This document shows, in pieces, positions 46,451-55,907 of a DNA stretch of 64,000 nt. Position 1 is the first letter of the stretch. Every line of letters begins with the position of its first letter. Origin of the DNA: Escherichia coli (lineage in GTDB: Bacteria > Pseudomonadota > Gammaproteobacteria > Enterobacterales > Enterobacteriaceae); the NCBI RefSeq assembly GCF_003790525.1, contig NZ_CP033632.1. One strand, 5' to 3'. A program made the translations under genes and the position numbers. A model generated the notes under the pieces. That model did no database searches. It saw only the letters and a list, made by a program, of their open reading frames with translations, and was not told where the DNA came from.

Positions 46451-47270
46451 GGCACTGTTGCAAAGTTAGCGATGAGGCAGCCTTTTGTCTTATTCAAAGG
46501 CCTTACATTTCAAAAACTCTGCTTACCAGGCGCATTTCGCCCAGGGGATCACCATAATAAAATGCTGAGGCCTGGCCTTTGCGTAGTGCACGCATCACCT
46601 CAATACCTTTGATGGTGGCGTAAGCCGTCTTCATGGATTTAAATCCCAGCGTGGCGTTGATTATCCGTTTCAGTTTGCCATGATCGCATTCAATCACGTT
46701 GTTCCGGTACTTAATCTGTCGGTGTTCAACGTCAGACGGGCACCGGCCTTCGCGTTTGAGCAGAGCAAGCGCGCGACCATAGGCGGGCGCTTTATCCGTG
46801 TTGATGAATCGTGGGATCTGCCACTTCTTCACGTTGTTGAGGATTTTACCCAGAAACCGGTATGCAGCTTTGCTGTTACGACGGGAGGAGAGATAAAAAT
46901 CGACAGTGCGGCCCCGGCTGTCGACGGCCCGGTACAGATACGCCCAGCGGCCATTGACCTTCACGTAGGTTTCATCCATGTGCCACGGGCAAAGATCGGA
47001 AGGGTTACGCCAGTACCAGCGCAGCCGTTTTTCCATTTCAGGCGCATAACGCTGAACCCAGCGGTAAATCGTGGAGTGATCGACATTCACTCCGCGTTCA
47101 GCCAGCATCTCCTGCAGCTCACGGTAACTGATGCCGTATTTGCAGTACCAGCGTACGGCCCACAGAATGATGTCACGCTGAAAATGCCGGCCTTTGAATG
47201 GGTTCATGTGCAGCTCCATCAGCAAAAGGGGATGATAAGTTTATCACCACCGACTATTTGCAACAGTGCC
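46451..47270 (-). mobile_element. IS26 copy 2 (G184N variant)
   Basis: IRs present; Tnp has KRIINATLGF; right flank CACCTTCT. Confidence 0.95.
46503..47225 (-). CDS. tnp26: IS26 transposase (G184N)
   Basis: Identical to other copies except G184N. Confidence 0.95.
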   Translation of the reverse strand: MLMELHMNPFKGRHFQRDIILWAVRWYCKYGISYRELQEMLAERGVNVDHSTIYRWVQRYAPEMEKRLRWYWRNPSDLCPWHMDETYVKVNGRWAYLYRAVDSRGRTVDFYLSSRRNSKAAYRFLGKILNNVKKWQIPRFINTDKAPAYGRALALLKREGRCPSDVEHRQIKYRNNVIECDHGKLKRIINATLGFKSMKTAYATIKGIEVMRALRKGQASAFYYGDPLGEMRLVSRVFEM

Positions 47271-48501
47271 CACCTTCTGTATGGGTTGGGGCGGAGGCTG
47301 TGGCTGCCGCCGCCATTGTAGCAAATTGAAGACGGAGCGAGAGTAGAGCCACGAGCCCCGCAAACACGGCCGATACAACGAGGCCAGGGAGCGGACCAGC
47401 AAGGTCGACAAACGCGCCGGCCGCAAGCATAACCATGGGCGAGGCTGACAGCATCACCGCCGAGACCGTGCCGAGTACCCGGCCGAGAAGTTCTGGCGGC
47501 GTGCGGTTGTAGATGGCAGCGTTGAGAATGGGAGAGACTGAGCCGGTCAGCAGTCCCACGAGCGCGCCCAACAACATCAGCACCGGCACGCCTGGCAACT
47601 GTGAAAGCAGAAGCGAGCCCACCGCAGAGCCACAAAATGCCACCGCCAGCCAGTTCTGCGCTGATATCCGGGCGCCGACCGACGCATGAATGGCAATGCC
47701 AAGGAGACCACCAGCCCCCATCATTGAGGAGAACAGCCCGAGCTCTGCTACTTGGCGTCCTGCATCTACAAACAGCGCAGGCATGATGACGCTGCCGTTG
47801 GCGCCAACGATGCCCACGAAGATCATCACTATACCAAAGAGAGGGCGCAGCAGGGGTTCGCTCCAGAGAAAAGCGACGCCGGCGCGCATGGAGAGAGTCG
47901 CCGTCGTGGTCATCGTCCGAGCGGCACGCGCGGGAAGCACCCACGCGCCGAGCAGACCTGCAAGGACGGAGCAGAACGCCGTCAGCCCGAGCGTTGGCGC
48001 AGCGCCAAGCAGGCCGATTGCGGCCCCCCCAAGGGCCGGGCCACCTAGAATCGCGACGTTCCCGATCACCGCTTTCAGTGACGAGACGCGCTCAACGGAG
48101 AGCCCGGCGACGTGGCCGAGTTTGGGCAGCTCACTGTCCTGCGCGGCCATACCGGGTGCGTCGAACGCGGCACCGAGCACCACGCAAGCGATCAGCCCAG
48201 TGTTCGAGAGGGCGCCAACGGCATCGAGCAGTGGGATGCTCGCCATGGCCACGCCGCCCACCACACCCGAGATCAATGCGACGGGCGCGCGCCCGAACCG
48301 ATCGACGAGGCCACCACCAACCCACGCGCCGATGATGGTCGCGATGACGCTGCTAGCGGCCGTGGCGCCCGCCCAGGCCGCGCTCTTTGTATGAGACAGG
48401 ACGAACCATGGAAGCGCGAGGGCCGCCACCGCGTTGCCGATCCGGAAGAGAAAGGTCGCCGCGAACAGCGTCGCGAGCGGGCTATATCGACGTTCGCTCA
48501 T
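47254..48501 (-). CDS. mrx: Mrx, MFS-type protein of the mph(A) operon; 3' end replaced by IS26
   Basis: Hydrophobic 415-aa ORF overlapping mph(A) stop; last 5 codons lie in IS26. Confidence 0.85.
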   Translation of the reverse strand: MSERRYSPLATLFAATFLFRIGNAVAALALPWFVLSHTKSAAWAGATAASSVIATIIGAWVGGGLVDRFGRAPVALISGVVGGVAMASIPLLDAVGALSNTGLIACVVLGAAFDAPGMAAQDSELPKLGHVAGLSVERVSSLKAVIGNVAILGGPALGGAAIGLLGAAPTLGLTAFCSVLAGLLGAWVLPARAARTMTTTATLSMRAGVAFLWSEPLLRPLFGIVMIFVGIVGANGSVIMPALFVDAGRQVAELGLFSSMMGAGGLLGIAIHASVGARISAQNWLAVAFCGSAVGSLLLSQLPGVPVLMLLGALVGLLTGSVSPILNAAIYNRTPPELLGRVLGTVSAVMLSASPMVMLAAGAFVDLAGPLPGLVVSAVFAGLVALLSLRLQFATMAAAATASAPTHTEGGHCCK

Positions 48502-49403
48502 TCCGCTGCGGCGAGCTGCGCCTTCGCCGCAGCGAGGTACTCTTCGTTACCCGAGTCGAGGGCGAAGAGTGCGTAGGTGACCGCCCCGAACGCAAGGCGC
48601 TCCGCGATGTGGTGGGCGAGCCGCGGCCACACCCGGCCACCGGCCGCTTCATACGTGAGGAGGAGCTTCGCGAGCCCCTCTTCACCAAAGACCATAAGGT
48701 GCGCGGCCATGTCGATGGCAGGGTCATCAACGCGGGCCTCGCTCCAGTCGATCATCCCGCTGACGCGCTCCGTGTTGTCGATGAGCACATGGCCCACGTA
48801 GAGATCGCCATGCACCACCACGGAGAAATCTGGCCACGACGAATCGTCGTCGAGCCAGCGCTGCCACCGGTGGAGGCGCTTGTCGTTCACCACGAACTCG
48901 CGTCGGACGCGGTCAACGTCGTCGGCCACCTTCTGACGGGCCTGCGTCGGTGTACGGATGAGCATCCCCGCATCCACGGCGGCGGAAATGGGGACGGCAT
49001 GCAGGGCGGCGAGCGCGGTCGCGAAGCTCTCCGCGAAGACCTCCGAGTCCTGCGGCACGACCCAGTCGGGCGTGGACGAACCAGGCTGGATGACCATCGC
49101 AGTCGAGTCTTCGAGCATGGGATAGGCAACGAGCTCGGCGTTGGCCACGCGCCAGTCCGGCACCGCGAACGGCAGGCGATTCTTGAGCATTGCCAGCACC
49201 CGCGCCTCTGGTTCGACCTTCGCGCTTACCTCGGCTCGGCGCGGGATGCGCAGCACCCACCGACGTCCATCGTCGACGGTGGCGATCACGATCCTATAGT
49301 CGAGCCCAAGCTCATTGACAGTCAGCGGGCCATGGAGCTTGAGCCCATGTCGGGCTGCAAGTGCGTACAGTTGGGAGGTATCGGCGGTCGTGACTACGGT
49401 CAT
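48498..49403 (-). CDS. mph(A): Macrolide 2'-phosphotransferase Mph(A)
   Basis: MTVVTTADTSQLYALAARHGLKLHGPLTV...; 301 aa. Confidence 0.95.
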   Translation of the reverse strand: MTVVTTADTSQLYALAARHGLKLHGPLTVNELGLDYRIVIATVDDGRRWVLRIPRRAEVSAKVEPEARVLAMLKNRLPFAVPDWRVANAELVAYPMLEDSTAMVIQPGSSTPDWVVPQDSEVFAESFATALAALHAVPISAAVDAGMLIRTPTQARQKVADDVDRVRREFVVNDKRLHRWQRWLDDDSSWPDFSVVVHGDLYVGHVLIDNTERVSGMIDWSEARVDDPAIDMAAHLMVFGEEGLAKLLLTYEAAGGRVWPRLAHHIAERLAFGAVTYALFALDSGNEEYLAAAKAQLAAAE

Positions 49404-55060: not shown

Positions 55061-55087
55061 CACACGAGTATTGAGCATAGTCGAGAT

Positions 55088-55907
55088 GGCACTGTTGCAA
55101 AGTTAGCGATGAGGCAGCCTTTTGTCTTATTCAAAGGCCTTACATTTCAAAAACTCTGCTTACCAGGCGCATTTCGCCCAGGGGATCACCATAATAAAAT
55201 GCTGAGGCCTGGCCTTTGCGTAGTGCACGCATCACCTCAATACCTTTGATGGTGGCGTAAGCCGTCTTCATGGATTTAAATCCCAGCGTGGCGTTGATTA
55301 TCCGTTTCAGTTTGCCATGATCGCATTCAATCACGTTGTTCCGGTACTTAATCTGTCGGTGTTCAACGTCAGACGGGCACCGGCCTTCGCGTTTGAGCAG
55401 AGCAAGCGCGCGACCATAGGCGGGCGCTTTATCCGTGTTGATGAATCGTGGGATCTGCCACTTCTTCACGTTGTTGAGGATTTTACCCAGAAACCGGTAT
55501 GCAGCTTTGCTGTTACGACGGGAGGAGAGATAAAAATCGACAGTGCGGCCCCGGCTGTCGACGGCCCGGTACAGATACGCCCAGCGGCCATTGACCTTCA
55601 CGTAGGTTTCATCCATGTGCCACGGGCAAAGATCGGAAGGGTTACGCCAGTACCAGCGCAGCCGTTTTTCCATTTCAGGCGCATAACGCTGAACCCAGCG
55701 GTAAATCGTGGAGTGATCGACATTCACTCCGCGTTCAGCCAGCATCTCCTGCAGCTCACGGTAACTGATGCCGTATTTGCAGTACCAGCGTACGGCCCAC
55801 AGAATGATGTCACGCTGAAAATGCCGGCCTTTGAATGGGTTCATGTGCAGCTCCATCAGCAAAAGGGGATGATAAGTTTATCACCACCGACTATTTGCAA
55901 CAGTGCC
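55088..55907 (-). mobile_element. IS26 copy 5 (G184N variant)
   Basis: IRs present; KRIINATLGF. Confidence 0.95.
55140..55862 (-). CDS. tnp26: IS26 transposase (G184N)
   Basis: as above. Confidence 0.95.
   Translation of the reverse strand: MLMELHMNPFKGRHFQRDIILWAVRWYCKYGISYRELQEMLAERGVNVDHSTIYRWVQRYAPEMEKRLRWYWRNPSDLCPWHMDETYVKVNGRWAYLYRAVDSRGRTVDFYLSSRRNSKAAYRFLGKILNNVKKWQIPRFINTDKAPAYGRALALLKREGRCPSDVEHRQIKYRNNVIECDHGKLKRIINATLGFKSMKTAYATIKGIEVMRALRKGQASAFYYGDPLGEMRLVSRVFEM

Follow-up and report, generated by a model that had tools for sequence, protein, structure and literature searches.

The IS26-v1 variant of the insertion sequence IS26 reportedly goes back to Pong, Harmer, Ataide & Hall 2019, and its nomenclature is said to come from Harmer, Pong & Hall 2021. 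It has been defined by 3 nucleotides that differ from IS26, two of which produce the G184N change within the catalytic domain of the transposase Tnp26 (PMC9412624). Enhanced cointegrate formation has been ascribed to it in passages that cite Pong et al. 2019 (PMC9412624, PMC9019673, PMC8477213, PMC12540391). The catalytic residues of Tnp26 have been given as D78, D138 and E173, with G184 in the loop past the E173 helix, and improved binding of the terminal repeats through N184 is put forward in the same source as its authors' untested idea (PMC8477213). Plasmids that mix IS26 and IS26-v1 have already been described (PMC9019673, PMC9412624, PMC12540391). The present analysis concerns a similar mixture in a stretch of 64,000 nucleotides from Escherichia coli (NCBI RefSeq assembly GCF_003790525.1, contig NZ_CP033632.1), which as a whole is called the window. 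It is probable, at roughly 85%, that the mixture was inherited from a region of incompatibility group X1 (IncX1) like that of plasmid pACN001-A, in which both alleles were already present, and was then rearranged by inversions of both alleles.

As far as these accounts describe them, the Salmonella pOYZ4/MRCP system (PMC9019673), pST1023 (PMC9412624) and Acinetobacter baumannii HN85 (PMC12540391) resemble the window. Several intact copies of both alleles occur in one resistance region, direct target duplications are missing from most of the copies, and 8-bp flanks that are reverse complements serve to recognise inverse intramolecular replicative transposition. In the pOYZ4 account, it is proposed that v1 handles inter-replicon events and the wild type intra-replicon rearrangements, whereas in the window both alleles would have inverted DNA intramolecularly.

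Two alleles in six intact copies

Six intact IS26 copies are present in the window, each of 820 bp with perfect terminal repeats of 14 bp. Together with one remnant they follow each other from left to right as wild type, v1, wild type, v1, v1, remnant and wild type:

c1, 41096-41915, minus strand: IS26 wild type; codon 184 GGC at 41301-41303; left edge of the island against the P1-like backbone
c2, 46451-47270, minus strand: IS26-v1; codon 184 AAC at 46656-46658; silent A at 46812; donor in the latest inversion
c3, 49473-50292, minus strand: IS26 wild type; GGC at 49678-49680; flanked by the canonical mph(A)-side TTCAATCC and by GAAGGGAC within the truncated IncX1 resolvase gene
c4, 52323-53142, plus strand: IS26-v1; AAC at 52935-52937; silent A at 52781; new copy born in the inversion
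c5, 55088-55907, minus strand: IS26-v1; AAC at 55293-55295; silent A at 55449; outer flank CTATAAAG
"copy 6", 57660-57801, minus strand: IS26 right-end remnant of 142 bp; one mismatch to IS26 (T for C) at 57751
c7, 61984-62803, plus strand: IS26 wild type; GGC at 62596-62598; next to it come the regulator gene rrf2 and the 3' portion of oqxB

An oriented base-by-base comparison revealed only three IS positions at which the v1 and wild-type groups differ, and within each group the copies are identical across the full 820 bp. At position 459 the v1 copies have A for G, which is silent (Pro132, CCG to CCA), and at positions 613-614 they have AA for GG, by which codon 184 changes from GGC (Gly) to AAC (Asn). 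Codons are numbered along the 234-amino-acid Tnp26 that starts with MNPFKG, its ATG lying at IS position 64. A first-pass annotation, made from the letters and their translations, had read KRIINATLGF in c2, c4 and c5 and KRIIGATLGF in c1, c3 and c7, exactly as found here, and the alignment places the difference inside codon 184 as it had proposed, with the silent change at 459 as the only other one. It had also counted seven Tnp26 sequences. There are six genes only, and the copy at 57660 is the 142-bp remnant, which ends about 65 bp before codon 184 and so lacks it; this remnant was inherited with the IncX1 relBE-IS91 segment.

All the sequence features of IS26-v1 occur in c2, c4 and c5, namely the length of 820 bp, the 14-bp repeats, a DDE transposase of 234 amino acids and the 3 base changes. 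The copies c1, c3 and c7 show zero differences from the IS26 copies encoding WP_001067855.1 in comparison loci L001, L002, L004 and L005. Residues D78, D138 and E173, located by the motifs HMDETY, INTDKA and VIECDH, are in place in the Tnp26 of the window. Judged by their sequence, c2, c4 and c5 are IS26-v1, the known natural G184N allele of Tnp26, and c1, c3 and c7 are standard IS26. No difference was detected between IS26-v1 and the variant copies in length, terminal repeats or the 3 base changes, the match being made through the descriptions in three later papers. The earlier suggestion that a G184N variant with enhanced activity had been described agrees with IS26-v1 and the activity reported for it (PMC9412624, PMC9019673, PMC8477213). 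This higher cointegrate frequency is known here from citations, and for the copies in the window it is a prediction.

An IS26 copy at the truncated-IS4/IS1 junction of plasmid pHN257-4 (NZ_CP139807.1, 8424-9243) combines AAC at codon 184 with G at position 459. Either the two alleles have recombined in it or it is a separate named variant.

The frequency of the alleles was estimated with 61-nucleotide probes centred on codon 184, which were compared with 5,426 complete E. coli genomes (20,395 replicon records). This IS26 segment is present in 5,826 records, among which the exact v1 61-mer occurs in 2,232 and the exact wild-type 61-mer in 5,259. By inclusion-exclusion, at least 1,665 records hold both alleles, which corresponds to 29% of the IS26-bearing and three quarters of the v1-bearing replicons. 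Coexistence of the two alleles is therefore ordinary as well as already known.

Proposed inversions in a pACN001-A-like region

The right flanks of c2, CACCTTCT, and of c4, AGAAGGTG, are reverse complements at 8 of 8 bases. This is the only full match among 14 eight-base flanks (91 pairs), where 0.003 would be expected by chance, and such flanks have been described for IS26 as the signature of inverse intramolecular replicative transposition (PMC9019673). When the event was reversed in silico, by dropping c4 and one target copy and re-inverting 47279-52322, 120 nucleotides were obtained that agree base for base with the canonical mrx(A)-mphR(A) junction in plasmid p1108-NDM. The ancestral donor junction predicted in this way (truncated IS4, IS26-v1, truncated IS1) has a one-piece match of 100% in pACN001-A (NC_023323.1) and of 99.9% in pHN257-4. 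The new junction between c2 and mrx gave no contiguous match to a 100-nucleotide probe in 72,556 plasmids (PLSDB) or in the 5,426 E. coli genomes. Because of the reverse-complement flanks, the restored junction, the presence of the ancestral junction in pACN001-A and the absence of the new one from the databases, c2 and c4 are regarded as a genuine replicative inversion pair of IS26-v1, which is lineage-specific and the latest resolvable event. The expectation of the first-pass annotation that the variant copies include the inversion pair was thus borne out.

The same inversion affected the neighbouring genes. Mrx(A) has lost its two C-terminal residues, EH, and ends instead in GHCCK, which the IS26 end encodes, and mphR(A) now lies inverted downstream of the tnp26 gene of c4, apart from mph(A)-mrx(A). 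The uncoupling of mphR(A) from mph(A) could alter the regulation of macrolide resistance, with possible clinical relevance for azithromycin resistance.

A second rearrangement involves the wild-type allele. In pACN001-A one wild-type IS26 has the flanks TTCAATCC and CGTCGGCT; in the window TTCAATCC belongs to c3 and CGTCGGCT to c1. On its other side c3 now borders on GAAGGGAC, which falls within the IncX1 resolvase gene res, at GTCCCTTC in pACN001-A. The split of the two flanks together with the new res flank is as expected from a replicative inversion by the wild-type copy.

Intramolecular IS26 inversions were simulated on pACN001-A, treated as a circle. When the wild-type event was run first and the c2/c4 event second, 41096-55907 of the window came out as one high-scoring segment pair (HSP) of 14,812 bp with 0 mismatches and 0 gaps. 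Once an inversion by the IS6100-adjacent v1 copy into CTATAAAG was added, a single HSP of 21,708 bp, which has 2 mismatches and 0 gaps, covered 41096-62803. One of these three simulated inversions is made by a wild-type copy and two by v1 copies. With the c2/c4 event placed before the wild-type event, the simulation broke into four pieces and did not reproduce the window, so that the wild-type event must have preceded the c2/c4 event.

Two other schemes were rejected. A single v1 inversion on an ancestor with the mph(A) unit inserted in res leaves the junction of c3 with res and the duplicated wild-type flanks unexplained. A wild-type inversion that would also account for the left flank of c1 predicts GAAGGGAC at that place and a further event is needed, the observed flank being GGCTATCG of the P1-like backbone.

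The c1/c3 pair has its old flanks split as predicted and its structure reproduced in the simulation, with the P1-like backbone in place of the partner target copy at c1; the structure of c5 is reproduced likewise. Neither the junction of c3 with res, searched with a 100-nucleotide probe, nor that of c1 with the P1-like backbone, both at wild-type copies, was found in PLSDB. These junctions point to further lineage-specific events at wild-type copies, and from this comparison of sequences we infer that both alleles have moved in this lineage.

The allele found at each flank was then tabulated for every intact IS26 in nine sampled loci, with sharing of junctions judged by 100-nucleotide junction probes:

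mph(A)-side flank TTCAATCC: wild type in 8 of 8
DUF3883-side flank CGTCGGCT: wild type in 4 of 4
truncated-IS4 flank AAAAGTCC: always N184
truncated-IS1 flank GATGACGG: always N184
IS6100-side junction: v1 in the window and in p1108-NDM; in pACN001-A an annotated v1-type copy (WP_001067858.1) adjoins IS6100
CTATAAAG junction (outer side of c5): v1 in the window and in p2EC1-2
aph(3')-IIa-side junction, flank CTACCGGC: wild type in the window (61984-62803), pACN001-A and p1108-NDM; v1 in pCFSA1007-2 (19405-20224) and pEC96-153kb (21403-22222)

The alleles of c1, c2, c3, c5 and c7 are those at the homologous junctions in pACN001-A, p1108-NDM, pE2855-3 and p2EC1-2. Since the allele at each tested pre-existing junction matches that at the same junction in other plasmids, these five copies appear to carry the allele that travels with their module, and the layout seems mostly inherited, with c4 as the only new v1 copy. 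The aph(3')-IIa-side junction differs between plasmids, and therefore the allele at a fixed junction can be swapped. In plasmid p2EC1-2 (NZ_CP047573.1, 33465-73564), all eight intact IS26 copies of a 40-kb stretch are IS26-v1, and one of them has the CTATAAAG junction of c5.

Modules and junction alleles as in the window were found in pACN001-A (IncX1), pHN257-4, p1108-NDM, pCFSA1007-2 and pEC96-153kb. After the inversions had been undone, 0 mismatches to pACN001-A remained across 14.8 kb. The window differs from pACN001-A and its relatives by two extra IS26 copies (c1/c3 and c2/c4 replacing one each), a truncated res and the separation of mphR from mrx. It also has no visible IncX1 replication/partition (rep/par) segment, and the region lies in a P1-like backbone.

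The most plausible history would start from a 21.7-kb segment, now spanning c1 to c7, of a pACN001-A-like ancestor, in which wild-type copies lay beside mph(A)/DUF3883 and aph(3')-IIa and v1 copies beside truncated IS4/IS1 and IS6100. The mode would be intramolecular replicative (copy-in) transposition of IS26 with inversion, by which the acting IS is duplicated in inverted orientation and the intervening DNA is flipped. In event 1 the wild-type copy beside mph(A) would have attacked GTCCCTTC in the IncX1 resolvase gene, giving c1 and c3; the wild-type c1 would also have become the boundary of the island with the P1-like phage-plasmid backbone. In event 2 the outer junction of c5 would have come about when the v1 copy beside IS6100 became linked to CTATAAAG, upstream of relBE. 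In event 3, later than event 1, the target of the v1 copy beside the truncated IS4 would have been AGAAGGTG, where mrx(A) and mphR(A) meet, with c2 and c4 as the products. The reconstruction also yields testable predictions for the part of the plasmid beyond the window: if event 2 was an inversion, an IS26-v1 copy on the plus strand should lie past oqxAB, beyond position 64000, followed by CTTTATAG and the inverted IncX1 rep/par segment.

The analysis shows which allele each copy is, which flanks are shared, that the target of event 3 is duplicated and that simulation reproduces the window. We infer that each event was a one-step reaction by the transposase of the moving copy itself, and that in event 2 DNA was inverted and not deleted. 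The use of its own transposase by each moving copy is supported, though unproven, because Tnp26 is expected to act preferentially in cis (PMC7885326).

Several points weigh against this history. Both target copies lie inside the window for event 3 only. For event 1 the partner flank, GAAGGGAC to the left of c1, has been replaced by the P1-like GGCTATCG, and for event 2 the partner would fall beyond position 64000. The junction of event 2 is shared with p2EC1-2 and may predate the lineage or stem from a deletion. The ancestor is represented by a substitute, pACN001-A, which departs from the window to the right of c7, the rrf2-oqxB found there in the window being as in p1108-NDM. Insertion followed by RecA inversion between inverted copies leads to the same final sequence, and the sequence cannot tell which of the alleles is more active.

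Competing explanations

The first-pass annotation had gone further and suggested that the variant copies cluster around mph(A) and are the recently active ones. Stated in full, the G184N copies would have moved recently through their higher activity, the wild-type copies would be static passengers, and the concentration of v1 around mph(A) would reflect that activity. The latest resolvable event, c2/c4, is indeed v1-mediated and unique to the lineage, v1 copies are used in 2 of the 3 modelled inversions, and the enhanced activity of G184N has been published. However, the window cannot be reached from the pACN001-A arrangement without the duplication of a wild-type copy (c1/c3), which must come before the v1 event, and this wild-type event is also recent because 0 mismatches were found over the 14.8 kb. 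The junctions of c3 with res and of c1 with the P1-like backbone, which are absent from PLSDB, belong to wild-type copies. Moreover, c2 and c5 lie at junctions that are v1 in other plasmids, which indicates inherited positions, and mph(A) is directly abutted by a wild-type copy, c3. The clustering is weak given the order of the copies. Of the claim about recent activity, the v1 origin of the latest resolvable event stands, and its use as an explanation of v1 placement, which is mostly inherited, does not. Overall, this explanation is judged unlikely.

For islands of this type the comparison suggests some caution. The position of an allele is mostly inherited with the adjoining module, and a cluster of variant copies is therefore no evidence of recent activity. 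Both the ordinary and the "hyperactive" allele have left clear traces of movement within a span that has no point mutations over 14.8 kb. None of this departs from known IS26 biology, and nothing in it is new in kind.

Distinctly less probable is that IS26 copies in inverted orientation, each acquired on its own via cointegrate formation and resolution, underwent RecA-dependent homologous recombination, and that this process, not one-step transposase inversion, produced the inversions. By reasoning, the same sequence, with its reverse-complement flanks, would also result if a copy inserted with a direct 8-bp duplication and then recombined with an inverted copy. IS copies do recombine or exchange, as the variable allele at the aph(3')-IIa side and the 459G/184N hybrid in pHN257-4 indicate. 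Nevertheless, more steps are required by this route, each member of a pair is a pure allele without hybrid tracts, and PLSDB and the E. coli genomes yielded no simple-insertion intermediate at AGAAGGTG or GTCCCTTC. Copy-in inversion by the transposase thus remains the preferred mechanism.

A more speculative idea, and something of a long shot, is that the two alleles may be partly separate interaction classes and that, independently, the v1 insertion which splits mphR(A) from mph(A)-mrx(A) may de-repress macrolide resistance. Targeted conservative IS26 reactions have been described as needing the same transposase at both partners, in work on more divergent IS pairs (PMC7885326). If G184 and N184 copies cross-react poorly, the fidelity of alleles to junctions would reflect a functional barrier, and copy-in events, such as the three inversions proposed here, would be the main way in which mixed islands evolve.

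It is hardly credible that errors of assembly or sequencing, or local gene conversion within the molecule, created the allele difference: nothing specific speaks for it beyond the fact that 820-bp repeats can be mis-assembled from short reads, whereas all three variant copies share the same three linked changes, which match the published allele, the same allele recurs at the same junctions in independent plasmids, and the exact v1 61-mer is found in 2,232 E. coli replicon records.

The island and its surroundings

Besides the IS26 copies, the following features were located in the window:

1-41095: P1-like phage-plasmid backbone, matching E. coli P1-like phage-plasmids of about 94-98 kb; annotations include PmgS, ead/Ea22-like, a Dam-type methylase and a DnaB-type helicase
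41916-46450, minus strand: aac(3)-IId module, with a DUF3883 gene, an AAA ATPase at 43991-44533, aac(3)-II at 44546-45430 and a truncated IS4-family transposase at 45549-46450; collinear with pACN001-A
47254-49403, minus strand: mrx(A) at 47254-48501 and mph(A) at 48498-49403
47271-47278, plus strand: 8-bp target copy CACCTTCT, inner flank of the inversion
50293-52322, minus strand: inverted IncX1 backbone fragment with truncated res, the dqlB region and truncated IS1; counterpart of pACN001-A 12286-10257
53143-53150, plus strand: 8-bp target copy AGAAGGTG, outer flank of the inversion, 7 nucleotides upstream of the mphR(A) start codon
53158-53742, plus strand: mphR(A) repressor gene, apart from mph(A)-mrx(A) and in opposite orientation
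54181-55060, minus strand: IS6100, 880 bp
55908-61983, plus strand: IncX1-derived segment with a relBE-like pair at 56951-57473, an IS91-family transposase at 57970-59169, an IS4-family (Tn5-type) transposase at 59487-60839 and aph(3')-IIa at 60946-61740

The P1-like match ends exactly at 41095, at the left end of the wild-type c1, and the IncX1-derived resistance island seems to be carried by a P1-like phage-plasmid. From the stretch between truncated res and the relBE region, the IncX1 replication/partition segment (pACN001-A 12287-18760) is absent, and the inversion model would put it beyond the end of the window. A second IS91-family element lies in the P1-like part at 20012-21700, with a transposase of 399 amino acids at 20196-21395, and is 99% identical to the copy of the island at 57786-59450.

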